64,000 nucleotides of DNA from Nitrospirota bacterium. GTDB taxonomy: Bacteria; Nitrospirota; Thermodesulfovibrionia; UBA6902. The stretch covers positions 3,439 to 67,438 of the forward strand of contig JACQXG010000039.1 of NCBI GenBank assembly GCA_016208905.1. Direction: 5' to 3'. Positions within the stretch are counted from its first letter, which is position 1; each line of letters starts with the position of its first letter. Positions 1,515 to 51,404 of the stretch are shown here, piece by piece. The notes below the pieces were generated by a model. That model saw only the letters and a program-made list of their open reading frames with translations, was not told the origin of the DNA and ran no database searches. A program made the position numbers and the translations under genes.

Positions 1515-3044
1515 TTACGGAGATTTGTTTTTCTTCTTCAACCGCTGATTCAGCGCCTGACGCGTAATGCCCAGCAGCGAAGCCGCGCTTCCCTGGTTGT
1601 CGTCACAGCATTTCATGGCTTCGGAAATTATGTGGTCTTCCATTTCCTTTAAGGATGGGAAATGTCCGAATATCTTTTTTAAAGAAGATGAGTTTTCATC
1701 CTCAGGCATGGCCTCAGTTTGCGGCAGCGGCCGCCTTTGTTTTATGAACCCCTTGAAACTGTCCAGGGAAAGTTTCCCTGATTTATACTGCGCAACAGCG
1801 TCATGGACCATGGCCTGAAGTTCGCGGACATTTCCCGGGAACTGATAGTTGGAAAGCAGGGTGATGAGTTCAGGAGAAAGCACAGGCTGCTTCTTGTTCA
1901 TGGTGCCGGCTGATTCTCTAATGAAATGATCAAGCAGCAATGGAATGTCCTGAAGACGTTCGCGGAGGGGAGGAATGTGAATGTGATGCGCGCACAGCCG
2001 GTAATATAAATCATTGCGGAACGATCCCTTTTCTATCTGCTCCTGAATGTCCTGGTTTGAACAGGCGATGATGCGCGCGCCGCTTTTCTCCGGTGTGTCT
2101 GATCCGAGGGGGTAGTAAATCCTTTCCTCCAGCAGGCGCAGGAGCTTCACCTGTGATGATTTGTTCAGGTCGCCTATCTCATCCAGTAAAAGGGTGCCTC
2201 CCGAGGCGCGTACTATCAACCCTTCTCTGTCCTTGTCCGCCCCGGTGAATGCGCCTTTTTTATGGCCGAATAACGTATCAGAGAACATCGTGTCATCCAG
2301 ACCGGCCACATTAACGGCAATATATTCACCTTTCAATCCGCTTGCAAGATGGACTGACCTTGCAACCAGCTCTTTACCGACTCCGGTTTCTCCGGTTATG
2401 AATACCGGCTTCTGTGATTTTGCCACGGCCTCGATGTACTGGAAGATGGCCCGCATCTTTTTACTTTTCGTAATGATCGATGAAAAGGCCGCCTCATTCT
2501 CCAGTTCCCCTGTGAGAAGGTGTTTCTTGAGTGAGGTTATCTCTTCTTCCATCTGCTTGCGCTCAGTGATGTCCCTGACGATATGGATTACACCTATGAG
2601 CTGATTGTTGCCGTCAAATTGGGGCATGGCCCTTATCTCAAGGAATTTATTCAAATGGGGCTCGTACGTTTCAAAGGCGACCGGCTTCTCGGATTTAAGG
2701 CACTCGCAGCTTGGGCAGCCTTTGGGAGGGGAACTCTCTCCGTGGTAATGCTGATAACATTTTGCTGTTTTGGACTTTAAGAAAGGCAGCCCGAGAATTT
2801 TTTCTGCTGCCTTGTTGGCGTGTATGATATTGAAGTCTTTGTCGTGGACCGTGATCATGTCGGTTATGTTATTGAAGGTGTCCTCCCAGCTGTATACCGA
2901 TTGAAAGATCAGCTCGTCCGAGCGTGAATGTTCCCTTTCCATATCGGAAACAAGCTTCCGCATTTCTTCCAGCTCTTTTATAAGCTGTTCTTTTGTTTTT
3001 TCATTATCATTCATAATAATGTTTTTTCTGATGAATGCATCCAA
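1515..3044 (-). CDS. sigma-54-dependent Fis-family transcriptional regulator with N-terminal PAS domain
   Basis: Contains the AAA+ sigma-54 interaction domain (GETGVGKE Walker A and the GAFTGA motif) and a C-terminal HTH. A PAS-like region lies upstream. The track start is a TTG, and ATG at 3014 (MNDNEKTK) is an alternative start. Confidence 0.85.
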   Translation of the reverse strand: MDAFIRKNIIMNDNEKTKEQLIKELEEMRKLVSDMEREHSRSDELIFQSVYSWEDTFNNITDMITVHDKDFNIIHANKAAEKILGLPFLKSKTAKCYQHYHGESSPPKGCPSCECLKSEKPVAFETYEPHLNKFLEIRAMPQFDGNNQLIGVIHIVRDITERKQMEEEITSLKKHLLTGELENEAAFSSIITKSKKMRAIFQYIEAVAKSQKPVFITGETGVGKELVARSVHLASGLKGEYIAVNVAGLDDTMFSDTLFGHKKGAFTGADKDREGLIVRASGGTLLLDEIGDLNKSSQVKLLRLLEERIYYPLGSDTPEKSGARIIACSNQDIQEQIEKGSFRNDLYYRLCAHHIHIPPLRERLQDIPLLLDHFIRESAGTMNKKQPVLSPELITLLSNYQFPGNVRELQAMVHDAVAQYKSGKLSLDSFKGFIKQRRPLPQTEAMPEDENSSSLKKIFGHFPSLKEMEDHIISEAMKCCDDNQGSAASLLGITRQALNQRLKKKNKSP

Positions 3045-3203
3045 AGTCAGAGGAGGGTAAATTTAAAAAGTCATCTCGATACCTTAGCACAGCCTTAATA
3101 GTACAAAAAGATGCGAAAACGCCGCAGCAATTAAAACAGGCTGATGACATTATTTAATATCTTATCGAATTATGAATTTTAAAATTTACCCTCCTCTGAC
3201 TTT
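3043..3203. promoter_or_regulatory. 27-bp inverted repeat pair, with one mismatch, flanking about 107 bp in the divergent promoter region between the PAS sigma-54 regulator and the DUF1460-ampG genes
   Basis: aaagtcagaggagggtaaatttaaaaa (3043-3069) against ttttaaaatttaccctcctctgacttt (3177-3203). Confidence 0.7.
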
Positions 3204-3321
3204 ATTATTGTAAATAGATGATCAATTCTGACTTAAGTATAACCCATTACATGCTCTGGATAAAAGATCAATTAAAAGCGCAAGCAGGGCCAATATGATA
3301 TTTTATTAATGTTAAAATACC

Positions 3322-4053
3322 GTGGTCATGAAAGAACAGATTAATTTAGGCAAATGGACGGAGGAGGGATTGAGCCATCTTCTTAAAGAGGCTTCGGATA
3401 TAAGCAGTTCAGGCGGACGAATAGCCTTGCTTTCAAGACACTTCCTCAAAACAGCATACAAAGAATCCACGTTAATCGGAGACGTAAACAGCCCGGAGGT
3501 TTTTGTCATCAATCTTGAGGCTGTTGACTGCTTCACGTTTATTGACTACATCGAGGCGATGAGACTTTCAAATTCTTTCATCGAATTCAGGGAGAATCTT
3601 AATAAGGTGAGATACAAGTCCGGGATGATTGCCTATAAAAACAGGAACCATTTCTTTACAGACTGGCGGGAATTCAATTCCGGCATGGTCGAAGATGTAA
3701 CAGAGAAGATCAGTTACGGCAATAGCCAGAAGGTGGTAAAACGGTTAAACAGGAAAGACGACGGAACATATTTTCTTCCCGGCATTCCCGTTATAGAGCG
3801 GGAGGTTGTCTATATCCATTCAGATGCGATTGATGATGAAGTGATTGAGAATCTGAACACAGGTGATTATGTCGGGATGTATTCAAAAATAGAAGGACTG
3901 GATGTATCACATGCCGGTATTGTTATCAAAGAGCAGGATACAGTTAAATTGAGACACGCCTCATCATTGCAAAAGCACAGGAGGGTGATGGATGAGGATT
4001 TGAGAAAATACTTAAAGGGTAAGCCGGGGATAGTTGTGCTTAGACCAAAGTAA
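3322..4053 (+). CDS. hypothetical protein, possibly a DUF1460 / amidase-like domain protein linked to cell-wall recycling
   Basis: A 243-aa ORF lying immediately upstream of ampG in a cluster with nagZ. The family assignment comes from recall and genomic context, not from a diagnostic motif. Confidence 0.35.
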   Translation: MVMKEQINLGKWTEEGLSHLLKEASDISSSGGRIALLSRHFLKTAYKESTLIGDVNSPEVFVINLEAVDCFTFIDYIEAMRLSNSFIEFRENLNKVRYKSGMIAYKNRNHFFTDWREFNSGMVEDVTEKISYGNSQKVVKRLNRKDDGTYFLPGIPVIEREVVYIHSDAIDDEVIENLNTGDYVGMYSKIEGLDVSHAGIVIKEQDTVKLRHASSLQKHRRVMDEDLRKYLKGKPGIVVLRPK

Positions 4054-4054
4054 G

Positions 4055-4073
4055 GGCGGGGTCACCCCGCCCC
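4055..4073 (+). terminator. GC-rich hairpin after the DUF1460-like gene
   Basis: gggcggggtcaccccgccc. Confidence 0.5.
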
Positions 4074-4095
4074 TACAAGCAACATAAAAAATAAT

Positions 4096-5307
4096 ATGAA
4101 AATGCTTAAGGCAATCTTCAGCCGCAAGATGCTGGTCTCCTTCATCATGGGTTTTGCCTGCGGCCTTCCCCTTCTGCTGACCATTTCCGTTCTGCAGGCA
4201 TGGATGAAGGAAGAGGGCGTGGACCTGGCAGTAATCGGAATGATGGCGCTTGTGGGCCTTCCGTATACAGCGAAATTTATCTGGGCCCCCTTCCTTGACC
4301 GTTTCACCCTTCCTTTTCTGGGACGAAGAAGGGGCTGGCTCCTGATTGCCCAGACAGCATTGATTTTATCGATTGCCGGTCTTGGCATGACCAGTCCCGG
4401 AAAAAGTCCCTGGATGGTCGCCTTTGCAGCGTTTCTCGTTACATTTTTCAGCGCCTCACAGGACATCGTGGTTGACGCTTATCGCAGGGAGGACCTTACC
4501 GACTCAGAGCTGGGATTGGGGTCTTCTCTTTATGTGAACGGTTACCGCGTGGGGATGCTCCTGGCCTCAGGCGGCGGACTTATCATGGCAGACCACATGC
4601 CCTTCTCAATGGTCTATTTGATAATGGCGGCGTGCATGCTGCCCGGTGTATTAACAACCCTGCTTACTCCCGAACCTGATGCCCCGATGGGCACACCGAA
4701 AAACATGAGGGAGGCAGTTGTCGATCCTCTCGTTGAATACTTCAGCAGGCAGGGGGCCATATGGATGCTTGTGTTTGTCCTGCTCTATAAAATCGGTGAT
4801 ACCATGGCGAGCGCGATGACGACCCCCTTTTATCTTGATATCGGATTTTCAAAGACAGAGATCGGCACGGTGGTCAAGCTTTTCGGGTTCTGGGCGACAA
4901 TTATCGGAAGTTTGATCGGGGGGATACTCATGCTGAAGATCGGGATAAACCGGTCTCTCTGGGTCTTTGGTTTTTTGCAGGCCGTATCAACCGCCGGATT
5001 TGCTGTGCTGGCAAAGATCGGGCATAGCGTACCGGCCCTGGCAGGGGTCATTGCCTTTGAAAATTTAAGCGGAGGGATGGGGACCGCTGCATACACGGCG
5101 TTCATGGCAAGCATCACAAACAGGAAATTTACTGCTACACAATATGCCCTTCTGTCCAGCCTTATGGGTGTCCCCAGGGTCATGGCATCTGCGCCGACCG
5201 GATATTTTGCGAAACATCTGGGATGGGTGAACTTCTTTATCATATGTACATTGATAGCAATTCCAGGGATGCTGCTTCTTCTGAAGATTGCGCCGAAGAA
5301 GGATTGA
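4096..5307 (+). CDS. ampG: muropeptide MFS transporter AmpG
   Basis: The sequence GLPLLLTISVLQAWMKEEGVDL...GLPYTAKFIWAPFLDRF matches the AmpG signature. The protein is a multi-TM MFS transporter. Confidence 0.85.
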   Translation: MKMLKAIFSRKMLVSFIMGFACGLPLLLTISVLQAWMKEEGVDLAVIGMMALVGLPYTAKFIWAPFLDRFTLPFLGRRRGWLLIAQTALILSIAGLGMTSPGKSPWMVAFAAFLVTFFSASQDIVVDAYRREDLTDSELGLGSSLYVNGYRVGMLLASGGGLIMADHMPFSMVYLIMAACMLPGVLTTLLTPEPDAPMGTPKNMREAVVDPLVEYFSRQGAIWMLVFVLLYKIGDTMASAMTTPFYLDIGFSKTEIGTVVKLFGFWATIIGSLIGGILMLKIGINRSLWVFGFLQAVSTAGFAVLAKIGHSVPALAGVIAFENLSGGMGTAAYTAFMASITNRKFTATQYALLSSLMGVPRVMASAPTGYFAKHLGWVNFFIICTLIAIPGMLLLLKIAPKKD

Positions 5308-7390: not shown

Positions 7391-8380
7391 ATGTCTGCCG
7401 GCCGGGACGATAAATTTACCGAGAGAAATTTGAGGGATATGATTGCGAATTGCGTGGACCCTGCGCGCGTGCCGAAAAGGATTAATATAATTACTGACAC
7501 ATCGGACTTTTTCAGGGTCGATTACGACGATGTTGTTATTCTTAACGGCCGTCCTTATTTTATCAGAAATTATGAGAAGGAAGGGCGTTTCAGCATAGAT
7601 GAGCAGCCGAAATTCTGGGTCAGGAGGGCGATTGACCTGCATGACGGGAGTATGAAAATTATTAAAATGGTTTTTCCTGAAAGATTCGATGCTAAAGTCG
7701 GCGATATAACTTTTGACTGTGTGCGAAGTCCTAAAAAAGAGGCCAGAATTCTTGAGTTGGTCAAAGGCCACCGGAATTTCATGCAGGGATTCAGCACCGT
7801 AGATTCAGCGGGGAATATCATAAGAATCGTTGATTATATCCCGGGCGTCGCGATAGATAACCTGGTATCAAAACTCGGCAAGGACCATGAAGACTATTTC
7901 TACAATCATTTTCTCACTGTATTTAACGATTATATCGAACTGGTAAAGGCCATCAAATTTCTTCATGACCACGGGGAGAAACACGGAGACATCAGACGGG
8001 ACCATATTATTAAGGACAAGCGCGACGGATTTTACCGGTGGATTGACTTTGACTATAATTACTGGCATAAAGAAAATATGTTCGGTTACGATCTCTTCGG
8101 GTTAGGCAACATCCTGATTTTTCTTGCCGGTCAGGGCGATGTTACCACGCAGCAGCTTGTACATAATGATCACCCTGTGCTGAACAATTTAACTGCTGAT
8201 GACACGAACATTATTTTCCGTAACAGGGTGGTCAATCTTCAAAAGATTTATCCTTACATCCCTGATGCGCTGAATTTTATTATGCTTCACTTCTCCAGGG
8301 GGACGGAGGTGTTTTACGATGATACAGATCAATTCCTGAATGATTTGCATGAAGCAGGGGATAAATTAGGTAATTCATAG
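7391..8380 (+). CDS. atypical protein-kinase-like (PKL) fold protein
   Basis: Has a catalytic-loop-like HGDIRRDHII (compare HRDLKPxN) and a DFG-like WIDFDY. Candidate beta3 Lys (MKIIK) and alphaC Glu (KKEARILEL) are present. There is no Gly-rich loop. Confidence 0.5.
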   Translation: MSAGRDDKFTERNLRDMIANCVDPARVPKRINIITDTSDFFRVDYDDVVILNGRPYFIRNYEKEGRFSIDEQPKFWVRRAIDLHDGSMKIIKMVFPERFDAKVGDITFDCVRSPKKEARILELVKGHRNFMQGFSTVDSAGNIIRIVDYIPGVAIDNLVSKLGKDHEDYFYNHFLTVFNDYIELVKAIKFLHDHGEKHGDIRRDHIIKDKRDGFYRWIDFDYNYWHKENMFGYDLFGLGNILIFLAGQGDVTTQQLVHNDHPVLNNLTADDTNIIFRNRVVNLQKIYPYIPDALNFIMLHFSRGTEVFYDDTDQFLNDLHEAGDKLGNS

Positions 8381-8616: not shown

Positions 8617-9120
8617 TTGGAAAGGGGGAAGGCTTTGGAAAATAACAACGCGGGGAATTCTGATTTACTAAAAGACAGACACGTCCTCATCGCGCTGGAT
8701 GAGTCGGAAAATGCTAAAAGGGCGCTTCTTTATGCAGCGGATTTTCTTGGGGGTGTGCCGGGATTTCGCGCCACTCTTCTCAGTATTATCCCTGAACCGC
8801 CTGAAGATTTTTTTGGCACGGATAAAGACCGTCAAATGTGGATAGAAGACCAGCATTTCAAGGCAAAAGAGATGCTCGATAAATACCGCCGGATACTTAT
8901 TCAATCCGGGTTCAGTGAAGATAAAGTAGAAGTCCTTATTGATGTCAAAAATTGCCCTTCTGTTGCGGAATGCATACTCGAGGAGCAAAGGAAGCTTGGA
9001 TGCTGTACGGTTATCGTAGGGCGGAGAGGAATATCAAAGACAGAAGAATTTATGTTCGGCAGCACTTCCAGCAAAATCCTGCATGCCGGGAAAAACTGTG
9101 CTGTATGGGTAATCGGATAA
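8617..9120 (+). CDS. universal stress protein (UspA family)
   Basis: Shows the USP fold signature ...VIVGRRGISKTEEFMFGSTSSKIL.... The start is TTG, and an AAGGGGGAAGG RBS precedes an alternative TTG at about 8635. Confidence 0.75.
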   Translation: MERGKALENNNAGNSDLLKDRHVLIALDESENAKRALLYAADFLGGVPGFRATLLSIIPEPPEDFFGTDKDRQMWIEDQHFKAKEMLDKYRRILIQSGFSEDKVEVLIDVKNCPSVAECILEEQRKLGCCTVIVGRRGISKTEEFMFGSTSSKILHAGKNCAVWVIG

Positions 9121-9125
9121 AGTGA

Positions 9126-10670
9126 TTAATTCTCTTTTTCTTCTATCCCGTATTTCTTCATTTTATACCCGATCTGCCTCGGGGTAATGCCGAGAAGACG
9201 CGCTGCCTTTGCATGAATCCAGCCTGACTTTCCCAGGGCATTAAGGATATTGGCCTTTTCAAGTTCCTCGATATTTGCTGTTAAGGATGATAATTTGTCG
9301 GAATTTTTCAAACGGCATATATTCATAGATACAGGCAGATCTGTCGCGGTTATTATATCTGAACCGGACATAACAACGAGCCTTTCAATAGTGTTTTCAA
9401 GCTCTCTTACATTACCTGGCCAGTGGTAATGTATAAAAACCTGCAAAGCGCTTTTATCCATGACCACGAAGCGGACGTTTTCTTCATTGAATTTATGTAA
9501 GAAATGTTCAATGAGGATTGGTATGTCCTCTTCTCTTTCCCGCAGTGGAGGTAAGAAAAGCGGTATCACATTAAGTCTGAAATAGAGGTCTTCCCGGAAT
9601 TTCCCCTGCGATACCAGGTTTTCAAGGTTGCGGCTTGTTGCGGTAATTATCCTGACATCAACCTTCAGTGTCTTTTCACTGCCTATCCTCTCAAATTCCC
9701 TTTCCTGCAGGACACGCAGGATTTTCGGCTGAAGCGCTGTGGGCAGGTCTCCTATTTCATCAAGGAAAATGGTCCCCTTATTTGCAAGCTCGAACTTGCC
9801 GCTTCTGGAGGAAACGGCCCCGGTAAAGGCCCCTTTTTCATGTCCGAAAAGCTCTGATTCTAAAAGTCCTTCGGGAATTGATGCGCAATTAAACTTAATA
9901 AAAGGCCCTTTGTTCCTCTGGCTCATGTAATGGATTGCTTTGGCGATCAGTTCTTTCCCGGTTCCGCTTTCACCCCGCAAAAGTACGGTTGCCTTTGAAG
10001 GAGAGACCCTGTGGACTGCCTTAAAAACCTCCTGCATCCTGTCAGAGTCGCCGATAATGTTATCAATGCTGTATTTGCCTTTTAACTCTCTCTTTAAATG
10101 CTCCTTTTCTTTTTCGATCCGCTCATAGCTTTCCCATAATTTAATAAACTGAGCTATTAATGAAGCCACGATTTCCAGGACCCTGAGGTCGTCATCGACG
10201 TTCCCCTTTTTTTCCGAATAAATCCTGTCAACGCTCAAAACTCCAAGCACTTCATTTTTAAGCTTGATGGGTATGCACAGGAAAGAAATACCGTCTTTTT
10301 CCGGCCTTGCCCCGGTCTTGTTCAGAAACAAAGGCTCTTTCCCGATATTGGGAATTACCATAGGTATCTTTTTTTCCAATACCCGGCCTACTATCCCTTC
10401 ACCAATCCGGTATTTACCTTTCTCGATATTATCTTTTGTAAGACCATGTGCCGCAACAATGCGGAGTTCCCCTGAAATCTTGTCGAGCAGAAATACGCAC
10501 CCCCTCTGCATTTCAAGCAGGCTCCCGATTGTCGACATTACTGACGACAGGTTTTTCTCAAGGGCAAAAGAGGTGGTGAGGACCTTGCTGACCTCAAGAA
10601 TGGCAGTCAGTTCCCTGTTTTTCTGGAGGATGAGGTCGGTTTTTCTATTTTTATCCGGGACGGATTTCAT
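9126..10670 (-). CDS. sigma-54-dependent transcriptional activator with N-terminal GAF domain (NifA/FhlA-like architecture)
   Basis: Has a GAF-like N-terminus, an AAA+ domain with GESGTGKE and GAFTGA, and a C-terminal HTH. It is divergent from the radical-SAM locus. Confidence 0.85.
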
Positions 10671-11036
10671 TGGCTAACACAAATAAATATATTGGAAAAA
10701 AACAGCGCATTATATTCATACTCAATGAATATAATGAGTTTTTTATTTATTCATCTTGAGAATAAATAATACTAACATCAGGTCAAAGCTTATATCAACT
10801 AAAGGTCCTTATATTACTTAAAGAGTATGGGTTAACACTATAGGTCACCATTGCCGGGTTTATGGATGACGCTTTGATTATTAATTGTGAAATATATGTA
10901 TGAAACGGTATAATAAAAAAGTTGAAATTCAATATAGCTGTAGAAGTTATATTCATATCCACTAGGGAAATTCATAGGAAAGAAAATTAACGCTGCATAC
11001 AACACATAAGTGCAGCTATTTTTTAACGGAGATTTT

Positions 11037-13448
11037 ATGGCAAAAGGTTGTTGTGACACAGGGAGAGAACAGCGTATTAAACAATACGATCTTACTGCAT
11101 GGTCTATTGCGGACCCTAATATTAAGGCTTTTAATTCTGATGATGTCTTATACTCCCCTGAATATTTAAAGAAACAAAAAAACGGTATATCTCTTTTTAT
11201 AGACCCTAAGTCGCCAAACTGGATCAGTGTAAATGAGACAGGGGCTGAGGTCATTAAACTTTGTAACGGCAAACGTGCGCTGTCTGATATTCAGGACTAC
11301 ATTTGCGATAAATATAAGGTAACGAACAAAAAGGAAGTCAGAGATGAAATCTCAAAATTCCTGAGCGCAGCAAGATTACTTGAATTCGTATCAAATACCC
11401 AATTTGTAAGACCTGAATATAAGGGAAGAAGCAGTGCGATTGCCCCCCATAAATTAGATGAACTCTGGATATATTATACGCTTGCCTGTAACCTCAGATG
11501 CAGGCATTGTCTTGTAAGCGCCGGAAAAGGCCTGCGAAAGGAATTGACCAATGACGAATTCAAGAAGGTCATAGACGATTCAATTAAGTTAGGGGTTAAA
11601 CGGTTTTACATTACAGGAGGTGAGCCGTTTATAAAAGAAGGAATATTTGACCTTATTAAATATATTACAAAAACAAAAAAACGTGAACTTATTGTTCTTA
11701 CTAATGCCACTCTTTTTGATGACAAGAAAATAGGAGCCTTGAAGAAGTTAGTCAGTCCCAAACTCCTTTTACAGGTCAGCCTTGAAGGCCCGAATGCGGA
11801 AATTCATGACGCGCTTCGCGGGAAAGGCAGTTTTGATAAGGCTGTAGAAGGTATCAGAAAATTAATAGACATAGGTATCACTCCTATTGTTTCAACGGCC
11901 ATCAGTAAGTTGAATGAGAAAGATATTGCAAAAACTTCCCGCTTTCTGTCAAAGCTTGGCATCCAGGAACATAATGTCCTATGGATGCATGCAAAAGGAC
12001 GGGGCGCGAGTAACTTAAGTGATTTATATGTGCCTTCCGATGATATTGCACGGGCGATGAAAAGACTTAAAAAGGAATATAAAGAGAAGGAGATGATATT
12101 TGATAATGTCGAATCATTGAAAGTCCGTGTCAGGACAAAGAGAGGAAGGAAAAATGACCTGTGCAATAACTGTTATGAAAAAATCTGTGTGAATTCTGAC
12201 GGCAATGTATATCCGTGTGCTTCACTCAATGGTGACAAAAATTTCAATGCAGGGTCCGTCCGTAACAAATCACTTAAAGATATCTGGCTGAATTCGAAGG
12301 CCATGGAAAGAGGCAGGAAAAACAGTGTTCAGGACAAACCGGAATGCAGGGATTGTTATCTTGAGTACTTCTGCGGCGGCGGATGCACATCTCATAGTTA
12401 TTATGCATCGGAAGTAGATACAGGAAAGGGGTCCGTCAAGGCCCTTGATCCTTATTGCTCGACGTATAAAGCATTGTTTGAGGACATTATCTGGGAGCTG
12501 GCTTCTGAGGGAGTTACGCCCCAAAGCGGAAAAGGCTACACTTCTCCTCTGGTTTATAATGCTATGGATTCAAAACTGCCCGGTCATCTTGGCGCAGGGA
12601 TTAAATCAATAGATAAGAATTTTGAAGTAGGGTGCTACCATTGTTCATGCGTGCTGTCGGTTGACGTTGAAGATGATGAAGAAGTTTGCAAACCTGAGAT
12701 AAAGGGACATGTGACCAAGACGGTGAAAAAGAAGTTTTCTAAAGCCGCCTATAATCCTGTAGCTGATTACTACTGTCCTACGGGTTACGCTCCCAATGAC
12801 CTGGCGCATATACCGAATGAAGTGCTCGATGTTTCTTATGGATGCGGCAATCCTGCTGCGCTTGCAGACATTAAAGAGGGGGAAACAATCGTTGATTTAG
12901 GCGCAGGTGGCGGCATTGACTGCTTTATTGCCGCGAAGAAGCTCGGGGATAAGGGCAAGGTAATCGGGATAGACATGACCGATGAAATGCTGGAAAAGGC
13001 AAGAGAAAGTGCGAAGAAAGTTGCAACGGTCCTGGGGTACGACATTGTCGAATTCAAGACAGGAAATATCATGGATATGCCTGTTGAGAGCAATTCGGTT
13101 GATCTGGTCATATCCAACTGTGTTATTAATCTTACTGAGGATAAGGCTAAAGTATTGAAAGAAATATATCGAATATTAAAACCAGGAGGGAGGTTTATTA
13201 TTTCGGATATTGTTTCGGATAAACCTGTTCCCGGATATTTAAAGAGAGACAAAGAACTGTGGAATGCATGTCTTTCAGGAGCTCTCACCGATAGTCAGTT
13301 TGAGGCAGTAGCAAAAAATGCCGGGTTCTCCAGTGTAAATATGACGAAAAATTACCTTTATAAGAAAGTTGAATATATAGAGTTTTATTCAATAACCTTA
13401 AAAGGGAGCAAACCACAGGAAGTCAATTGCTGTTGCTCCTGCAGTTGA
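11037..13448 (+). CDS. multidomain fusion: PqqD-like RRE, radical SAM, SPASM and arsenite-methyltransferase (ArsM/AS3MT)-like SAM-dependent methyltransferase
   Basis: The start is refined to ATG 11037, preceded by a GGAG RBS. The RRE reads NETGAEVIKLCNGKRALSDIQDYICDKYKV...ISKFLSAARLLEF. The rSAM cluster is CNLRCRHC, of CX3CX2C form. Cys-rich SPASM segments read CNNCYEKICVNSDGNVYPC and CRDCYLEYFCGGGC. The C-terminal MT domain has YGCGNP, DLGAGGGIDC, ISNCVINL, LKPGGRFIISD and WNAC, conserving the three AS3MT catalytic cysteines. The protein begins MAKGCC and ends CCCSCS. Confidence 0.8.
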   Translation: MAKGCCDTGREQRIKQYDLTAWSIADPNIKAFNSDDVLYSPEYLKKQKNGISLFIDPKSPNWISVNETGAEVIKLCNGKRALSDIQDYICDKYKVTNKKEVRDEISKFLSAARLLEFVSNTQFVRPEYKGRSSAIAPHKLDELWIYYTLACNLRCRHCLVSAGKGLRKELTNDEFKKVIDDSIKLGVKRFYITGGEPFIKEGIFDLIKYITKTKKRELIVLTNATLFDDKKIGALKKLVSPKLLLQVSLEGPNAEIHDALRGKGSFDKAVEGIRKLIDIGITPIVSTAISKLNEKDIAKTSRFLSKLGIQEHNVLWMHAKGRGASNLSDLYVPSDDIARAMKRLKKEYKEKEMIFDNVESLKVRVRTKRGRKNDLCNNCYEKICVNSDGNVYPCASLNGDKNFNAGSVRNKSLKDIWLNSKAMERGRKNSVQDKPECRDCYLEYFCGGGCTSHSYYASEVDTGKGSVKALDPYCSTYKALFEDIIWELASEGVTPQSGKGYTSPLVYNAMDSKLPGHLGAGIKSIDKNFEVGCYHCSCVLSVDVEDDEEVCKPEIKGHVTKTVKKKFSKAAYNPVADYYCPTGYAPNDLAHIPNEVLDVSYGCGNPAALADIKEGETIVDLGAGGGIDCFIAAKKLGDKGKVIGIDMTDEMLEKARESAKKVATVLGYDIVEFKTGNIMDMPVESNSVDLVISNCVINLTEDKAKVLKEIYRILKPGGRFIISDIVSDKPVPGYLKRDKELWNACLSGALTDSQFEAVAKNAGFSSVNMTKNYLYKKVEYIEFYSITLKGSKPQEVNCCCSCS

Positions 13449-13486: not shown

Positions 13487-14968
13487 ATGAGAGTAACTTT
13501 GGTTAACGCACAGGTATTGGACGGCAATAATGTCGTACCCCCTTTAGGGCTTATGTATATCGCTGCCGTATTGGAAAAGGCCGGACATGCTGTCCAGATA
13601 TTTGATTCCGACCCCGAATACCAGGATACCATGCTTAAGGAGATAAAGGAATTTAATCCTGAATTGATAGGATTAAGTTTCCTGACAGTAGCCTATCAGA
13701 GGGCATTTAACCTTTGTAAGACTTTAAAAAAGGAACTGCCTGATGTTACATATTGTGCAGGAGGAGTGCATACAACAGTTAAACCTCATGATACCTTAAA
13801 AGAATTCGACCTCGATTTCATTGTTATTGGAGAAGGTGAAGACACTATAGTTGAAGTATGTGAGAAACTTGCAAAGAAAGAAGGCGTTGCGGGGATAAAG
13901 GGAGTTATGTACCGTGAAAACGGTGTAATTATTGAAAACGAAAAACGTGATATGATTACTGATCTTGATACCATCCCGTTTCCTGCAAGGCACTTAATAG
14001 ATATGAAACCCTACCTGAAGCCGCCGGGAATTATAAGGGGCTATGCTGAAAAGAACCAGACTACCATTGTTACAAGCAGGGGTTGTCCGTTCAAGTGTAT
14101 CTACTGTGGCAGTCATAACATATTTGGCAGAAGGACAAGAAGACGCTCCGTGAAAAATGTTGTTGACGAGATAGAACATCTGGTCAAGAATTACGATATG
14201 AAGGGTATATATTACTGTGATGATACGTTTACTCTCAGCTCCAAATGGGTAAAAGAATATTGTGAAGAACTGAAGAGGAGAAATCTGAATATTAAATGGG
14301 CTTGCCAGTCAAGGGTGGACCAGACCGACAGGGAATTAATGCAGAGAATGAAAGATTCCGGGCTGGTACAGCTTGACTTTGGCGTAGAAAGCGGTTCTGA
14401 AAAGATCCTCAAAGTGCTGGGCAAAGGCGGCGCCGGCGACAGGACATCACAGATAAAACAGTCTTTTAAACTTTGCAAGGAGCTGGATATCAGGACCCTT
14501 GCAACATTTATTATTGGTAATCCTACAGAAACAAGAGAAGATATAGAAGAAAGTTTTCAGGTAGCAAAAGAGATTGATGCCGATTACACAGCTTTTTATT
14601 TCCTGACTCCTTATCCCGGGACGGATATATATAACATGGCCATTGAAAATGGGTGGCTTGACCCTCACGTCCCGTTCTCAGAGATATGGGCGCACAGGCA
14701 GCCGGAGCTCCCATTGATGGCTATAACATTCGGCAAGGAAGAACTCCGGGATATCCGCAGACACCTGCAGAACCAGTTTTTTGTAAAAAATTATCTCAAG
14801 GCTTCGAGCAATATCAGCTTCTACTCGATACTGTTCAGCATTATCTTCAGGCATCCCAAAGTTATTCTGGATTGTCTTGGTAAACTAATCAGGACCCGAA
14901 GAATTGATTATATCGTTGAGACACTTAACGCGGAATACTGGCGGATGAAAAAGTACGAAGGGGCCTGA
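13487..14968 (+). CDS. B12-binding domain radical SAM protein (class B rSAM methyltransferase-like)
   Basis: Has an N-terminal cobalamin-binding-like Rossmann region, an rSAM cluster CPFKCIYC, and a ~16-18-nt gap after the fusion gene with an AGAGGTAGAG RBS. Confidence 0.8.
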   Translation: MRVTLVNAQVLDGNNVVPPLGLMYIAAVLEKAGHAVQIFDSDPEYQDTMLKEIKEFNPELIGLSFLTVAYQRAFNLCKTLKKELPDVTYCAGGVHTTVKPHDTLKEFDLDFIVIGEGEDTIVEVCEKLAKKEGVAGIKGVMYRENGVIIENEKRDMITDLDTIPFPARHLIDMKPYLKPPGIIRGYAEKNQTTIVTSRGCPFKCIYCGSHNIFGRRTRRRSVKNVVDEIEHLVKNYDMKGIYYCDDTFTLSSKWVKEYCEELKRRNLNIKWACQSRVDQTDRELMQRMKDSGLVQLDFGVESGSEKILKVLGKGGAGDRTSQIKQSFKLCKELDIRTLATFIIGNPTETREDIEESFQVAKEIDADYTAFYFLTPYPGTDIYNMAIENGWLDPHVPFSEIWAHRQPELPLMAITFGKEELRDIRRHLQNQFFVKNYLKASSNISFYSILFSIIFRHPKVILDCLGKLIRTRRIDYIVETLNAEYWRMKKYEGA

Positions 14969-15180
14969 ACTGAAGATAAGTAATAATGAAGAAATGGTGT
15001 TGAAATGCAACGAGTTTTCTTTTTATGTCGGAATTCCTTACTCTTGGCATAGAATTTTACATTTTAACCAGGGCTTGAATTATAGGTATCTTTGAAAATC
15101 AAGGACTTTAACATGAGCATAAGTTTTGCATATTTTAATAGGGATTAAATCAATCCAATTTACTATAATGCATTTAGGAT

Positions 15181-15549
15181 ATGCAGATGATTCGAAATAG
15201 GGTAGTGAAGACCGTTGAAATGGAAAAAAGGCGTTCCCAGAGGAAACCTGTGAGTTTAGACGCAGAAGTTTCCTTTGACGGTAAGAATTATCCCGTATAT
15301 ATAGAAAACATTTCCGAGTATGGATTACATGTGATAGCTGCTGCCGGGAAGAAAGCAGTATCTATTGTACCTGAGATGATACTTAAGCTCGAATTTCAAC
15401 CTCCTGCCGGGGAAAAAACAGACCTGCATTACGAGGTAAGATGGGTGCATATCAATAAAACCCCGATACATGGACTGACATACAGAATGGGTATGGATAT
15501 ATCAGATCAATTTTCAGGGCATAAAGACCTTCTTAACATTCTGGAATAA
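15181..15549 (+). CDS. PilZ domain protein (c-di-GMP receptor)
   Basis: Carries the RRSQRKP (RxxxR) and ENISEYGL (D/NxSxxG) PilZ motifs. Confidence 0.8.
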   Translation: MQMIRNRVVKTVEMEKRRSQRKPVSLDAEVSFDGKNYPVYIENISEYGLHVIAAAGKKAVSIVPEMILKLEFQPPAGEKTDLHYEVRWVHINKTPIHGLTYRMGMDISDQFSGHKDLLNILE

Positions 15550-18166: not shown

Positions 18167-20566
18167 CTACTTTTGGCCTTTTCTCTTTTTTATGCTCTTT
18201 TTAACTCTCGTCTTACTGCTTGTCTTAAGGGCGTTTTTCAATACCTCGTCCATAGTTTCAACAGGTATAAACTGCATATCTTTTTTAATATATTTAGGGA
18301 TATCTTCAAGATCTTTTTCATTTCTTTTAGGAATAATTACTTTTTTGATGCCCATTCTCTTTGCTGCAAGGGCCTTCTCTTTTAATCCGCCTATCGGCAG
18401 TACGGTACCGCGCAGAGTTACTTCACCGGTCATGGCAATGCTTTTATGGACAGCCCTGCCCGTAAATATGGAAGCAATGGCTGTGGCCATAGTTATCCCC
18501 GCAGAAGGGCCGTCCTTCGGAATCGCGCCTGCCGGGACATGTATATGAATATCATTATCTGAAAACATGGTATTCTTTATACCGAGGCTTTTTGCCTTTG
18601 AACGTATATAACTTAAGGCTGCATGAGCGGACTCTTTCATTATGTCTCCAAGCTGACCGGTAAGGGTAATGCCGCCTTTGCCTTTCATTATAATTGCTTC
18701 AATATATATTATATCCCCCCCCGCTTCAGTCCAGGCCAATCCGGTTGAAACGCCGACCTCATCTTTCTTGATTTCCTCTTCAGGCAGATATTTAGGCACG
18801 CCGAGATATTTTGACAGATTTATCGAGGAAATATTATATTTTTTGGTCTTGCCTTCAGCAATCTTTCTTGCTACCTTCCTGCAGAGATTGGCGATCTCAC
18901 GCTCAAGGTTTCTTACGCCGGCCTCACTCGTATAGTGGGTGGTAATCTGCAAAAGCGCGCTGTCATTTATTTTAATATCTTTTCCAGAAATGCCATGTTC
19001 AGTCAGCTGCTTGGGGATGAGATAATTTTTGGCTATTCCAGCTTTTTCCTCAGCTGTATAACCGGATAAGTAAAGCACCTCCATTCTGTCTCTCAACGGA
19101 GAAGGAATTGGGTCCATCTGATTTGCAGTTGTTATAAACATTACGTTACTTAAGTCAAAAGGGACTCCCAGGTAATGGTCTGTAAAGGCAAAATTCTGCT
19201 CCGGATCCAAAACTTCTAAAAGCGCGGAGGCGGGATCGCCTCTGAAGTCCATGCCTATTTTGTCAACTTCATCGAGCATAAACACAGGATTGTTTTTGCC
19301 TGTTGTTTTGATACCCTGAATGACCCTTCCCGGCATGGCTCCGACATATGTCCTTCTGTGCCCTCTAATCTCGGCTTCGTCTCTCATTCCTCCGAGGGAC
19401 ATCCTGTAAAACTCCCTTCCAAGAGCTCTGGCAATTGACTTGCCGAGTGAAGTCTTGCCGACTCCCGGCGGTCCCACAAAACACAGAATGGGGCCCTTCA
19501 TTTTGTCTTTTAACTTCCTTACTCCAAGATATTCAAGGATTCGTTCTTTGACCTTTTCAAGATCATAGTGGTCTTCATCAAGGACCTTCTTTGCACGTTT
19601 TATGTCGAGATTATCTTTTGTGCTTTTTGACCATGGCAGTTCCACGAGCCAGTCAACATAAGTTCTGATAGTGCCGGCTTCTGCGCTGTCCTGATGCATT
19701 TTATCGAGACGATTGATCTGTTTTATGGCTTCTTTTTCTACCTTTTCGGGCATCTTTGCTTCGTCAATCTTCTTGCGCAGATCCATGATCTCTTCGGTCT
19801 TTTCATCTATTTCGCCAAGTTCTTTCTGTATGGCCTTCAGCTGCTCCCTGAGAAAATATTCCCGCTGAGTTTTATCTATTTCACCTTTGACGTCTGACTG
19901 GATTTTCTGCTGCACGAGCAGCAGCTCAACTTCTCTGTTCAGGATCTCACTGATTTTATTGAGTCTCAGGATGGGGTCTGTTTCCTCCAGTAATGCCTGT
20001 GCCTGCTCAGCCTTCAAGCCCAGATTTGACGCAACTAAATCTGCAAGCCGTCCCGGTTCTTCTATGTTTTCGATCAGGACAATAATATCAGGCAGGAAAG
20101 ACTTTCCGAGCGCCAGGGATTTATCTACAAGTTCTTTTACATTCCGCATAAGCGCTTCAACTTCTAAAGTTAATTCAGGCTGTTCCTGGTCAACGACTTT
20201 TTCAATCTCTCCGATATAAAACGGATCTGTCTGGTTGTAATTGAGAATCCTTGCTTTTGACAGGCCCTGAACAAGAATTTTAAGTCTTCCGTCCGGCAGT
20301 TTCAGCATTCTTAATATTGTCCCGACTGTACCAACTGCGTAAAGGTCATCTTTGGACGGTGACTCTATATTAACGTCTTTCTGCGAGACAAGCAAAATTA
20401 GTTTGTTGCTTTCAACTGCATGTTCAATTGCCTTTATTGATATATCTCTTCCCACAAACAGAGGTAGAATCATATACGGAAATATGACAACATCTCTTAC
20501 CGGAAGAATTGGCAGGGTTGTCGGAATTTCTATTTCACGCTCTTCCTTTATATCAAAATCTGACAT
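18167..20566 (-). CDS. lon: ATP-dependent Lon protease (LonA)
   Basis: Has the Lon N-domain, an AAA+ GPPGVGKTS, and the S16 catalytic PKDGPSAG...K. It is 799 aa long. Confidence 0.95.
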
Positions 20567-48935: not shown

Positions 48936-51404
48936 TTATTTTTTGCTTTTTTTGTTTTTACTATTATCTTTTTTCTTTTTGCCGTTATCGTTATTTTCCG
49001 GCTCTTTTTCACCTTTCAGGGCTTCGGAAAATTCTTTTAGCCTTTTTGCGACAAGGGAATTGAATGTGCCTTCCGGATAAGTCCCGTCGGGCTTCATTTC
49101 TCCGGGGAGCATGCCGGTGAGGATTTCAATGCCGTCCTCGATATTGTCAATGGAATATACGTTGAATTTGCCGTTTTCAACCGCTTCAATAACGTCAGTT
49201 TTTAACATAAGGTGCATCAGGTTCCGCTTAGGAATAATGACGCCATGCTGACCACTGAGATTGTATAGTTTGCAGACCTCATAAAATCCCTCTATCTTTT
49301 CATTAACTCCGCCGATAGGCTGGACTTCACCGTGCTGGTTCATAGAACCGGTAATTGCAAAAGACTGTTTCAGCGGCACTCCTGCTATGCTGCTTAAAAG
49401 GGCATAGATCTCAGCGCAAGTCGCGCTGTCACCCTCTACCCCGCCGTATAACTGCTCGAATGTGAGGGATGCGGTCAGGCTAAGGGACTGCCTCGTGGCA
49501 TATTTCCCGCCGAGATAAGCAGTAAGTATCAGGATCGCCTTTTCATGAATTTTGCCGCTCATCTTTGTTTCCCTCTCAATGTTAACAATACCTGCCTTTC
49601 CCGCATATGTCCTGGCAGTGATCCTTGAAGGCATTCCAAACCTGTAATCTCCGAGATCAAGGACTGAAAGCCCGTTTATCTGACCTATAACGGCCCCTTC
49701 TGTATCAATGAGGATTATTCCCTCCTCAGTCGCTTCGAGTATTTTTTTCTCCACCTTATTACAGCGATATGTTTTCTCTTCAAGGGCTTTATCAACGTCA
49801 TCGGATGTCACAAGGTTGTGTTTATTGTACCGTGCCCAGTGGTCGGCTTCCCTGAGAAGGTCCGCTATATCGCTGAATTTGGCCGACAGCTTACGCTGGT
49901 GTTCGGCAAGTCTTGAACCGTATTCAATAACCTTTGCAACCGCGTCACGGTCAAAAGGACGCAGTCCCCTTTCATCACATTTTGTTTTTACAAAACTTGC
50001 ATACTTGAGCATGTGCTCCGGATTTCTGTCCATACGATTTTCATAATCCGCTTTTACCTTAAACAGCTCCCTGTATTCCTCATCAAGATTATAAAGGAGA
50101 TAATAAAGATGGGGGTTTCCTACCAATATAATTTTTACGTTAAATGGGATTGCCTGGGGCTTAAGCGTGGCTGTTGACAGTAAACGGTACTGTTCCCATA
50201 CATCTTCTATCTTTATTTCTTTGTCTTTTATGGTTCTTTTCAGGGCGTCGTAGGAAAAGATGTTTTTCAGGAGCTCAAGCGCGTCGACAACCAGGTAACC
50301 GCCGTTTGCCTGCTGAAGTGAGCCGGTCTTTATCATAGTGAAATCAGTCATTGCAACACCGTACTGCAGTTTATGTTCAACTCTTCCAAAGAGGTTGTAA
50401 TACGTTGGATTGCTTTCTATAACTACAGGGGCGCCTTTTAAATCGCGGTTATTGACAAAGACGTTTATGGAATATCGGATGAATGAAGGTTCAGTCTTTG
50501 GAGGTTTCATAAAAGGAAGGGTCGGGGCTGCCTGTTCTTCTTGAGGTTTGAAGTCATCAAGATGTTCCAGAATGTCTTCTTTTACCTGTTCAAGGTAATT
50601 TAAAACTTCCGGGTTGTCCATATGCTTACTTTTTATTTCATCGATCCTGTGACCTATAGAAGACAGTGTGGCCTGACGTTCAAGGTCTTTCATCATATCT
50701 TTAATCTTTTTTTCTTCATCTCTTACAACCCTTATAACATCATCGAGTTTTTCCTGCAGCTCCTTCCCTATAGTTTCAATCTTCTTTTTTACCTTTGGAT
50801 CGAGACTCTCATATTCTTCCTCACTTAAAGTTTCACCCGTTGTTTTCACAGGAACAAGAATCAGCCCGCTGACGGTTTTTCTCAACGTAAAATCCTTGTC
50901 CTTTGCCTCTTTTTCAAGGTCGGTGAAATGTTCTTTCTGCTTGTGTTGGAAATCCTCCAGAATTTTAGTGCGCTGTTTTTCATACTCTTTAGATTCAAAA
51001 ATCTTTGGAATTTCCTGCCTGAGGACCGATATCAATTCGTCCATTTCTTTTTGGAACGCAAGCCCTGTTCCGGGATGCAGGCTGATAGCGCGGGGTACGT
51101 CGGTATTTTTGAAATTATATACATAACACCAGTCATCTGGCACAGGCTCACTCTTTGATTTATCTTCCAGGATCGTTTTTATCGTAGTTAATTTGCCGGT
51201 GCCGCTTTCACCGAGAATGTAAATATTGAATCCATGACTGTCAATGTCCAGGCCGAATTTCAGAGCACTCAACGCCCTTTTCTGCCCAATTGTTTCTGTT
51301 AATATGGGGATATCATCGGTTGTTTTAAAGGGTAGATCTTCTGGTTTGCAGCAATAATAAAGTTCTTTTTTATTGACTTTTTGTAACATACACTGACCTC
51401 CCAA
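48936..51404 (-). CDS. Lon-related AAA+ ATP-dependent protease (LonB/Lon-like family, stand-alone)
   Basis: Has Walker A GESGTGKLTT, and a C-terminal S16-like domain with a GDSATCA catalytic Ser region and a downstream Lys. The tail is lysine-rich. The probable start is the Met at about 51389. Confidence 0.7.
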   Translation of the reverse strand: MGGQCMLQKVNKKELYYCCKPEDLPFKTTDDIPILTETIGQKRALSALKFGLDIDSHGFNIYILGESGTGKLTTIKTILEDKSKSEPVPDDWCYVYNFKNTDVPRAISLHPGTGLAFQKEMDELISVLRQEIPKIFESKEYEKQRTKILEDFQHKQKEHFTDLEKEAKDKDFTLRKTVSGLILVPVKTTGETLSEEEYESLDPKVKKKIETIGKELQEKLDDVIRVVRDEEKKIKDMMKDLERQATLSSIGHRIDEIKSKHMDNPEVLNYLEQVKEDILEHLDDFKPQEEQAAPTLPFMKPPKTEPSFIRYSINVFVNNRDLKGAPVVIESNPTYYNLFGRVEHKLQYGVAMTDFTMIKTGSLQQANGGYLVVDALELLKNIFSYDALKRTIKDKEIKIEDVWEQYRLLSTATLKPQAIPFNVKIILVGNPHLYYLLYNLDEEYRELFKVKADYENRMDRNPEHMLKYASFVKTKCDERGLRPFDRDAVAKVIEYGSRLAEHQRKLSAKFSDIADLLREADHWARYNKHNLVTSDDVDKALEEKTYRCNKVEKKILEATEEGIILIDTEGAVIGQINGLSVLDLGDYRFGMPSRITARTYAGKAGIVNIERETKMSGKIHEKAILILTAYLGGKYATRQSLSLTASLTFEQLYGGVEGDSATCAEIYALLSSIAGVPLKQSFAITGSMNQHGEVQPIGGVNEKIEGFYEVCKLYNLSGQHGVIIPKRNLMHLMLKTDVIEAVENGKFNVYSIDNIEDGIEILTGMLPGEMKPDGTYPEGTFNSLVAKRLKEFSEALKGEKEPENNDNGKKKKDNSKNKKSKK

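Follow-up and report, generated by a model that had tools for sequence, protein, structure and literature searches.

Introduction

Enzymes of the ArsM type bind trivalent arsenic, As(III), through their cysteines and methylate it. To our knowledge, the only radical S-adenosylmethionine (SAM) enzymes that form arsenic-carbon bonds are ArsS and ArsL, and each of these works with a separate ArsM protein. ArsS adds a 5'-deoxyadenosyl radical to a dimethylated arsenical. In ArsL, a flexible C-terminal tail with the motif RCCLKC binds As(III) through all of its three cysteines, a 3-amino-3-carboxypropyl (ACP) radical is added to the bound arsenic, and ArsM then receives the product. Here we describe a gene of a Nitrospirota bacterium of the class Thermodesulfovibrionia (assembly GCA_016208905.1), located within a stretch of 64,000 nucleotides of contig JACQXG010000039.1 (positions 3,439 to 67,438; hereafter the window), the product of which joins a radical SAM half and an ArsM-like methyltransferase in a single polypeptide. 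We favour the view that this fusion takes the place of separate ArsM and ArsS (or ArsL) proteins.

Architecture of the fusion protein

The gene is a single uninterrupted open reading frame (ORF) on the plus strand, which opens at 11010 or, with the ATG taken as start, at 11037. We adopted the latter because a GGAG ribosome-binding site precedes this ATG and because the resulting N-terminus, MAKGCC, matches the MAKxCC shared by about 110 homologues, yielding a protein of 803 amino acids (aa; Table 1). Direct translation places MAKGCC at residues 1-6, CNLRCRHC at 151-158 (holding the CX3CX2C cysteines C151, C155 and C158), TGGEP at 193-197, and a complete seven-Cys SPASM pattern (C384-x9-C394, C437-x2-C440-x5-C446-x3-C450, C474). 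The methyltransferase part follows with YYC580, YGC603GNP, DLGAGGGIDC, ISNC695VINL, LKPGGRF and WNAC745LSGA, the last five of which had been read correctly in a preliminary description of this DNA, made from its letters alone.

Among the Pfam matches, taken at E<0.01, PqqD (PF05402) reaches 34.9 bits against a cut-off of 23.4 and Radical_SAM 92.3 bits, both over the residue ranges given in Table 1, while SPASM scores 42.1 bits against 21.5 (residues 376-441) and Methyltransf_31 122.4 bits (residues 612-753). The N-terminal radical SAM domain with CX3CX2C and SPASM Cys clusters, as well as the PqqD-like recognition element (RRE) of the kind used for ribosomally synthesised and post-translationally modified peptides (RiPPs), were thus rightly proposed in the preliminary description, the RRE being part of the fusion protein itself. 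Prediction of the full-length protein with AlphaFold2 from a 70-sequence alignment returned one confident model, with a predicted local distance difference test (pLDDT) score of 86.6 and a predicted template modelling (pTM) score of 0.81, whose two halves separately match peptide maturases and ArsM. Only residues 1-7 and 797-803, which are the two Cys-bearing ends, fall below a pLDDT of 50.

The methyltransferase half

By sequence and predicted fold, the C-terminal domain is of the ArsM type. The NCBIfam comparison, judged on the 25 best of 131 matches, is headed by the arsenite methyltransferase family NF008823 (253.5 bits, E 2.4e-75), with other ArsM-derived families next. Searched against the sequences of the PDB, the C-terminal part retrieves As(III) methyltransferases as all of its best five matches, namely CrArsM (5evj, 2.7e-37), CmArsM (4kw7, 4fr0 and 5eg5, around 1e-33, with 4fr0 at 2.5e-33) and human AS3MT (8xt7, 1.4e-28), and the next family follows at 5e-14. 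Foldseek comparison of the C-terminal half with the PDB similarly recovered human AS3MT, CmArsM (also as the As(III)-bound structure 4fsd) and CrArsM 5evj, the last with 39% identity and a root-mean-square deviation of 2.5 A across 221 aligned columns. A generic UbiE-like methyltransferase, an objection that had been foreseen, is ruled out, as ArsM families and structures are ahead of other methyltransferases by at least 15 orders of magnitude.

Residue-by-residue counting through the PDB sequence alignment equates C603, C695 and C745 with C72, C174 and C224 of CmArsM, and BLASTP equates them with C61, C156 and C206 of human AS3MT (the human sequence was entered by hand, and its numbering reproduces C32 and C61). 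All three catalytic cysteines claimed in the preliminary description therefore superimpose by sequence. ArsM enzymes require a fourth, N-terminal Cys (C44 in CmArsM, C32 in human AS3MT) for the first methylation. The candidate for this role, C580, lies 23 residues before C603, as compared to a spacing of 28-29 in CmArsM and human AS3MT, and the pairwise alignments begin downstream of it; it is invariant in an alignment of 70 diverse fusions, yet missing from a clade carrying DUF5714 in a 22-member alignment.

A widespread family with two conserved active sites

Among 5.8 billion proteins searched, an NCBI protein from a metagenome-assembled genome (Nitrospirae) is identical to the window protein, and over 110 clusters are full-length homologues (792-822 aa, 66-89% identity). 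The latter stem from assemblies of NCBI, JGI, ENA and Logan and carry the names Nitrospirae, Nitrospiraceae or Thermodesulfovibrionia. A separate look-up of the window protein by exact sequence found no entry. With one intact ORF and this many full-length homologue clusters, the fusion is genuine. Scanning 1.8 billion representatives exhaustively with HMMER further uncovered a wider fusion superfamily (31-48% identity, 700-1080 aa), the members of which align in one stretch over residues ~45-795 of the window protein; the family as a whole comprises hundreds of sequence clusters. It spans at least eight phyla, with carriers in Terriglobia/Acidobacteriota, Gemmatimonadota, Planctomycetota (including Scalindua and Brocadiaceae), Thermoanaerobaculia, Desulfobacterota, Chitinivibrionales, Omnitrophota and Myxococcota, and includes an isolate, Hydrosulfovibrio ferrireducens CB1MN (locus L019). 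The uniqueness implied in the preliminary description was consequently overstated, both as a large family is present in public databases and as separate ArsS/ArsM and ArsL/ArsM pairs are known. Members are at present annotated as "PqqD family peptide modification chaperone" or "methyltransferase domain-containing protein". The fusion as such is not covered by any Pfam or NCBIfam model, and our literature searches found no paper describing it.

Across 114 close homologues the radical SAM, SPASM, linker and ArsM cysteines are conserved at 96-100%. In 22 diverse fusions the invariant cysteines are C151, C155 and C158, C538, C603, C695 and C745. The As-binding triad C603/C695/C745 is invariant in the 114 close homologues and in both the 22- and the 70-member diverse sets, as are the CX3CX2C and GGEP motifs of the radical SAM domain, and both halves are therefore under selection. 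The linker residue C538 is likewise invariant throughout the superfamily, in the 22- and 70-member alignments alike.

The SPASM cysteines behave differently from the triad, being replaced in most distant clades, where GGDxxHS stands for GGCTSHS and NxGWxSLC for CNNCYEKIC (fusion members P0124-P0151 against the window protein). These clades still align at the fold level and retain an RRE-like domain, the region having the appearance of a degenerate 'pseudo-SPASM'.

The preliminary description had also drawn attention to Cys clusters at both termini. MAKGCC and CCCSCS are both present, and the N-terminal pair is nearly fixed among the 114 close homologues (C5 94%, C6 100%), albeit restricted to the clade of the window protein. 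The tail is variable, with 41-76% Cys per position, and is missing in some members. A Cys-rich end is also present in human AS3MT and in distant members of the fusion family.

Several variant architectures were found. Some fusions retain the ArsM C-terminal domain, ending in CC; others carry a C-terminal DUF5714 (P0131 and P0145-P0147, ~1000-1080 aa), and P0142 has a family 2 glycosyltransferase (GT2) attached at its C-terminus. In P0134, P0136 and P0140 the order is reversed, an N-terminal ArsM-like methyltransferase that starts with CC motifs being followed by radical SAM and SPASM domains, which suggests independent fusion events. The sole NCBIfam match of DUF5714 is the metal-binding double selenoprotein MbdU, at 141-143 bits and below the cut-off.

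The radical SAM half and the search for a precursor

Foldseek comparison of the N-terminal half with the PDB yielded SkfB, SuiB, anSME, BlsE and PqqE. Curated maturase families are matched well below their cut-offs (StsB 150 bits against 625, AlbA 105 against 850, WgkB 132 against 650). Neither TIGR04167 (ArsS) nor DUF3641 appeared among the Pfam matches or the 25 best NCBIfam matches.

We found no plausible or conserved small ORF at 10671-11040 or 14960-15200 of the window that could serve as a precursor gene, and aligning the upstream and intergenic DNA of five loci revealed no conservation. Small ORFs that adjoin the fusions of relatives (50 aa in locus L084, 76 aa in L090) encode hydrophobic membrane peptides devoid of Cys. 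The loss of SPASM cysteines in distant clades, together with the lack of a conserved precursor, argues against peptide cross-linking as a function of the whole family. Apparently, the RRE/SPASM scaffold has been recruited away from peptide chemistry.

Gene neighbours of the fusion in relatives

Two families with the NCBI name "arsenosugar biosynthesis glycosyltransferase", TIGR04282 and TIGR04283, recur next to the fusion. According to their TIGRFAMs descriptions, both were defined by their joint occurrence with TIGR04167, a radical SAM family since recognised as ArsS. Both lie directly beside the fusion, above cut-off, in L007 (Terriglobia), L011 (Planctomycetota), where they are joined in one gene, and L090 (Archangium), and TIGR04282 alone is beside it in the Nitrospirae loci L004 and L084 (66% identical to the window protein). 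CX3CX2C occurs in no ORF other than the fusion in L004, L007, L011 and L018, and in L090 the fusion is the sole Radical_SAM match within 7 kb; nor did the stretches examined next to TIGR04282/TIGR04283 contain a second ArsM gene. As the only radical SAM protein of the TIGR04282/TIGR04283 loci, it therefore occupies the slot that ArsS and ArsM fill in canonical clusters.

The arrangement is most extensive in L084, where the fusion and a B12-binding-domain radical SAM gene (see below) close a same-strand cluster. TIGR04282 (201.6 bits against 134) is succeeded by a 504-aa membrane GT2 and three proteins (one with TPR repeats, two without family matches); then come a membrane peptide of 50 aa and a polyprenyl-phosphate-type GT2, ahead of the fusion and its B12 partner. 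L004 is alike. The membrane GT2 of ~504 aa, with a QxxRW motif (cellulose-synthase/PgaC-like, Glyco_transf_21), is found at 3709-5223 of L084 and 6388-7899 of L087. The copy of L084 is 47% identical to that of L087 (Scalindua), located directly upstream of the Scalindua fusion, downstream of which are a thioredoxin-reductase-like flavoprotein and a ferredoxin.

Other neighbours vary. The Archangium locus also has VTT/DedA, a stand-alone DUF5714 (10365-11108) and a thioredoxin, a PHO4/Pit-type transporter gene overlaps the stop codon of the fusion in L089, and L008 (Gemmatimonadota, 2011-4492) has a MerR-like gene and a MerA that passes the cut-off with 568 bits near its fusion. MerA-like flavin adenine dinucleotide (FAD) disulfide reductases flank the fusions of L009, L010 and L019, and FA_hydroxylase is among the lipid-flavoured neighbours. 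Clustering the neighbours of 24 fusion loci revealed no universally conserved partner outside the close clade. The MerA/MerR proteins, flavoproteins, thioredoxins, PHO4/Pit phosphate(arsenate)-type transporters and DUF5714 are all compatible with a thiol/metalloid theme.

A co-conserved B12 radical SAM gene and the surrounding window

The gene that follows the fusion in the window encodes a B12-binding-domain radical SAM protein, which is absent from the preliminary description although it is invariably linked to the fusion in the close clade. All close-clade loci that extend far enough downstream (L001, L002, L003, L084 and L086) have it directly after the fusion, across gaps of 30-65 bp that contain a ribosome-binding site. 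Moreover, more than 20 clusters of the fusion and of the B12 radical SAM protein could be paired by equal size of their longest contig (for example 12154, 132882, 76923, 169838, 16678, 65324 and 80825). The best families are BchE (219 bits) and HpnJ (206 bits), both far under cut-off, and its reaction may be a methylation, a cyclisation or a rearrangement. Against the ArsL family NF040542 it reaches 74 bits versus a cut-off of 450, and it ends in KKYEGA, without a Cys tail. All 120 best homologues come from the same Nitrospirae clade, with nothing on other phyla. Among these 120 best clusters identity is 64-97%, so that the B12 radical SAM protein is more conserved than the fusion.

Beyond a PilZ-domain gene, the other strand encodes an M50 peptidase, DUF2062, ThiL and Lon. 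The PilZ gene is missing at the equivalent position of L001-L003, L084 and L086, and one lies ~3 kb from the Archangium fusion. Upstream, a divergent sigma-54 activator adjoins the fusion. The 366-bp intergenic region between the two has no sigma-54 promoter of the form TGGC-N8-TGC, and a search for Rfam elements upstream of the fusion gave only one sub-threshold chance match. A regulatory link of the activator to the fusion is doubtful, because the upstream neighbour differs in other loci.

The remainder of the 64 kb is of a housekeeping nature (tRNA-guanine transglycosylase, RecA, Znu transporter, cytochrome c biogenesis, mur/dcw genes). A 329-aa ORF at 7391-8380 (plus strand) resembles protein kinases only weakly, below the threshold (21 bits against 31.7), and may be atypically kinase-like; a universal stress protein gene (8617-9120) adjoins it. 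The window also holds two different Lon-type proteases on the minus strand (18167-20566 and 48936-51404), a canonical LonA and a LonB/LonC-like AAA_32 protein.

Table 1. Coordinates of the fusion gene, its domains and adjoining genes (window positions)
Feature	Position	Strand	Remarks
Fusion gene	11037-13448	+	803 aa: RRE, radical SAM, SPASM, Cys linker, ArsM-like methyltransferase
N-terminal extension, residues 1-30	11037-11126	+	Clade-specific, not in distant clades; CC pair at 5-6; residues 1-7 predicted disordered
PqqD-like/RRE domain, residues 55-113	11199-11375	+	Pfam PF05402; P60 and W62 kept across fusion superfamily
Radical SAM core, residues 146-304	11472-11948	+	CX3CX2C at 11487-11510, TGGEP at 11613-11627; folds like SkfB, SuiB, anSME
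SPASM domain, residues 376-474	12162-12458	+	C376/C379 and seven-Cys motif C384, C394, C437, C440, C446, C450, C474
Linker Cys cluster CYHCSCVLSVDVEDDEEVC, residues 533-551	12633-12689	+	C533, C536, C538, C551
ArsM/AS3MT-like SAM methyltransferase domain, residues 556-796	12702-13424	+	C580 (candidate fourth Cys), C603, C695, C745
Flexible C-terminal Cys tail NCCCSCS and stop codon	13425-13448	+	pLDDT <50
B12-binding-domain radical SAM gene	13487-14968	+	38 bp downstream of fusion; co-conserved operon partner
PilZ-domain gene (cyclic di-GMP receptor type)	15181-15549	+	Between B12 radical SAM and M50 peptidase genes
GAF-AAA+-HTH (helix-turn-helix) sigma-54 activator	9126-10670	-	Divergent, directly upstream of fusion

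Discussion

We tentatively interpret the fusion as a bifunctional single-chain enzyme for the synthesis of organoarsenicals, or of compounds containing another, closely related thiophilic metalloid, a reading that we consider quite possible. It is favoured because the As-binding triad and the catalytic residues of the radical SAM domain are both invariant, because the fusion holds the ArsS and ArsM slot beside TIGR04282/TIGR04283 in four phyla, because the Cys-bearing ends are disordered and the linker residue C538 is invariant, and because SPASM is dispensable in other clades and a precursor gene is absent. Of the two options left by the preliminary description, methylation and radical chemistry on a thiol-bound metalloid is the one that we prefer, in view of the glycosyltransferase neighbours, the invariant triad and the loss of SPASM cysteines. 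Its other option, modification of a peptide, fares less well for lack of a conserved precursor.

The architecture, conserved catalytic residues, fold, family and gene linkage are established, and homology and context suggest how such an enzyme may operate. In the ArsM-like domain, As(III) would be bound by C603, C695 and C745, perhaps together with C580 as fourth ligand, and methylated from SAM in an SN2 (bimolecular nucleophilic substitution) reaction. Still bound to thiols, the methylated As(III) would next be passed to the active site of the radical SAM domain on the same chain; its carriers may be C538, which is invariant, and the flexible Cys arms at the N-terminus (CC) and the C-terminus. 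There, a second SAM would be reductively cleaved to form a further As-C bond, as in ArsS (5'-deoxyadenosyl) or ArsL (ACP). In the clade of the window protein, the co-transcribed B12-type radical SAM protein could further modify the product in a clade-specific step, while in relatives TIGR04282, TIGR04283 and other GT2 proteins might turn it into a glycoside or lipid. A more specific scenario, to which we attach considerable doubt, is an organoarsenical route widespread among anaerobic bacteria that is independent of ArsS and ArsL, in which As(III) would stay tethered to the Cys arms and be shuttled between the SAM-methylation and radical SAM sites, and in Thermodesulfovibrionia then to the cobalamin radical SAM protein, giving an undescribed arsenic-containing sugar, lipid or alkyl compound that would be made constitutively from a core-genome operon.

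Several observations weigh against arsenical synthesis. The fusion and its B12 partner have housekeeping genes as conserved syntenic neighbours (M50 peptidase, DUF2062, ThiL, Lon), an unusual setting for a pathway that depends on arsenic; among the ORFs scanned in the 64-kb window no ars genes were seen, and neither TIGR04282/TIGR04283 nor GT2 homologues are present there. In relatives, the glycosyltransferase association concerns only ~6 of the ~30 loci examined, and the 'arsenosugar' label of TIGR04282/TIGR04283 is itself drawn from comparative genomics. Within the protein, the radical SAM half of the window clade is of the RiPP-maturase type, with RRE and full SPASM, and no relation of this half to ArsS or ArsL was detected. 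Finally, the match to NF008823 narrowly misses the cut-off of 263 bits (covering profile positions 38-236 of 272), and six other fusions, at 222-257 bits, are all below it.

The maturase-like features could alternatively be taken at face value. The RRE would then recruit a Cys-containing peptide encoded elsewhere, or the protein's own termini, for cross-linking by the radical SAM/SPASM half and methylation by the methyltransferase and the B12 radical SAM protein, the ArsM-like cysteines being repurposed. A PqqD match above cut-off, a complete seven-Cys motif and best fold and family matches to SkfB, SuiB, anSME, StsB and AlbA agree with such a RiPP or protein maturase, as do the conserved 30 N-terminal residues directly preceding the RRE and the B12 radical SAM gene, since partners of this kind are frequent in RiPP clusters (the ApyD family is matched at 176 bits). 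We consider it unlikely however, as no small ORF is conserved, the intergenic DNA upstream shows no conservation and the small ORFs of relatives encode Cys-free, hydrophobic membrane peptides. Furthermore, most of the superfamily has lost the SPASM cysteines while the As-binding triad stays invariant, the RiPP-specific NCBIfam models are all far under their cut-offs, and the neighbours in relatives are glycosyltransferases and redox proteins rather than peptidases or transporters.

The same two-site enzyme could also act on another thiophilic substrate, such as selenium, tellurium, antimony or mercury species, a thiol-bound cofactor or a lipid head-group intermediate, and thereby serve a constitutive role in anaerobes outside arsenic metabolism. 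The core-genome synteny and high conservation across the clade would suit this idea, as would the mer operon and MerA-like neighbours of some relatives, the relation of DUF5714 to a metal-binding selenoprotein family, the lipid-flavoured surroundings (the membrane GT2 shared by Nitrospirae and Scalindua, VTT/DedA, FA_hydroxylase) and the narrowly missed NF008823 cut-off. With the nearest sequence and structure relatives all being As(III) methyltransferases, a Cys triad geometry that is a hallmark of As(III) binding, and TIGR04282/TIGR04283 annotated as arsenosugar-linked, we give this, too, a low probability. Still less probable is a plain arsenite-detoxifying ArsM whose Fe-S/radical SAM module forms no new bond and only donates electrons, for instance to re-reduce a catalytic disulfide. 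The catalytic cycle of CmArsM and AS3MT does require disulfide reduction, and thioredoxin- and disulfide-reductase-type neighbours occur, but the invariance of the SAM-binding GGEP and of CX3CX2C would not be needed for electron transfer alone, the auxiliary-cluster cysteines are those lost in distant clades, and the linkage to the B12 radical SAM protein and to glycosyltransferases would be left unexplained. The last alternative, two genes artificially joined by misassembly or a frameshift, was raised as an objection in the preliminary description and is rejected, its probability being negligible in light of more than 110 independent full-length clusters with a conserved linker from four assembly sources, a fusion superfamily in many phyla and a single confident AlphaFold2 model.

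If the family indeed builds organoarsenicals, the known enzymology of carbon-metalloid bond formation would be widened, and unrecognised arsenic or metalloid natural products, as well as their cycling in anoxic sediments and aquifers, would be expected. The family, which includes anammox Planctomycetota, fuses an ArsM-type domain to a radical SAM scaffold with no detected relation to those of ArsS and ArsL, and with members under generic names only it represents a systematic annotation gap.

Comparison with known systems

The RRE-dependent radical SAM/SPASM maturases of RiPPs (SkfB, SuiB, AlbA, StsB, PqqE) share with the fusion the order of RRE, radical SAM and SPASM domains, the seven-Cys motif and the fold. 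They differ in that the fusion has no precursor gene, carries an attached ArsM domain and is far under the cut-offs of the specific family models, and in that the SPASM cysteines are degenerate in most of its superfamily. ArsM and AS3MT (4fr0/4fsd, 5evj, 8xt7) have in common with the C-terminal domain the Rossmann methyltransferase fold, the SAM motifs and the three As(III)-binding Cys positions, at a core identity of 35-39%, and human AS3MT likewise possesses a Cys-rich C-terminal end. In the fusion, by contrast, the domain makes up the last third of an 803-aa radical SAM protein and is without the ArsM C-terminal domain that more distant fusions keep, its candidate fourth Cys is at a shifted position outside the alignments, and its score remains below the NF008823 cut-off.

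ArsL (NF040542), the partner of ArsM in the arsinothricin pathway, sets a precedent among radical SAM enzymes for a flexible, As(III)-binding Cys tail. ArsL is, however, a B12-binding-domain-type radical SAM protein with a fixed RCCLKC, to which the radical SAM half of the fusion has no detected relation, whereas the NCCCSCS tail of the fusion varies among homologues and is located at the methyltransferase end. With ArsS and ArsM the fusion shares the combination of a radical SAM enzyme and an ArsM-type methyltransferase, and its relatives adjoin TIGR04282/TIGR04283, but the radical SAM part is of the RRE/SPASM type, both activities reside on one chain, and the window has a B12 radical SAM gene in place of glycosyltransferase partners. 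The large multi-phylum family to which the protein belongs is already public under generic names; its novelty is the fusion of radical SAM and ArsM on a different radical SAM scaffold.

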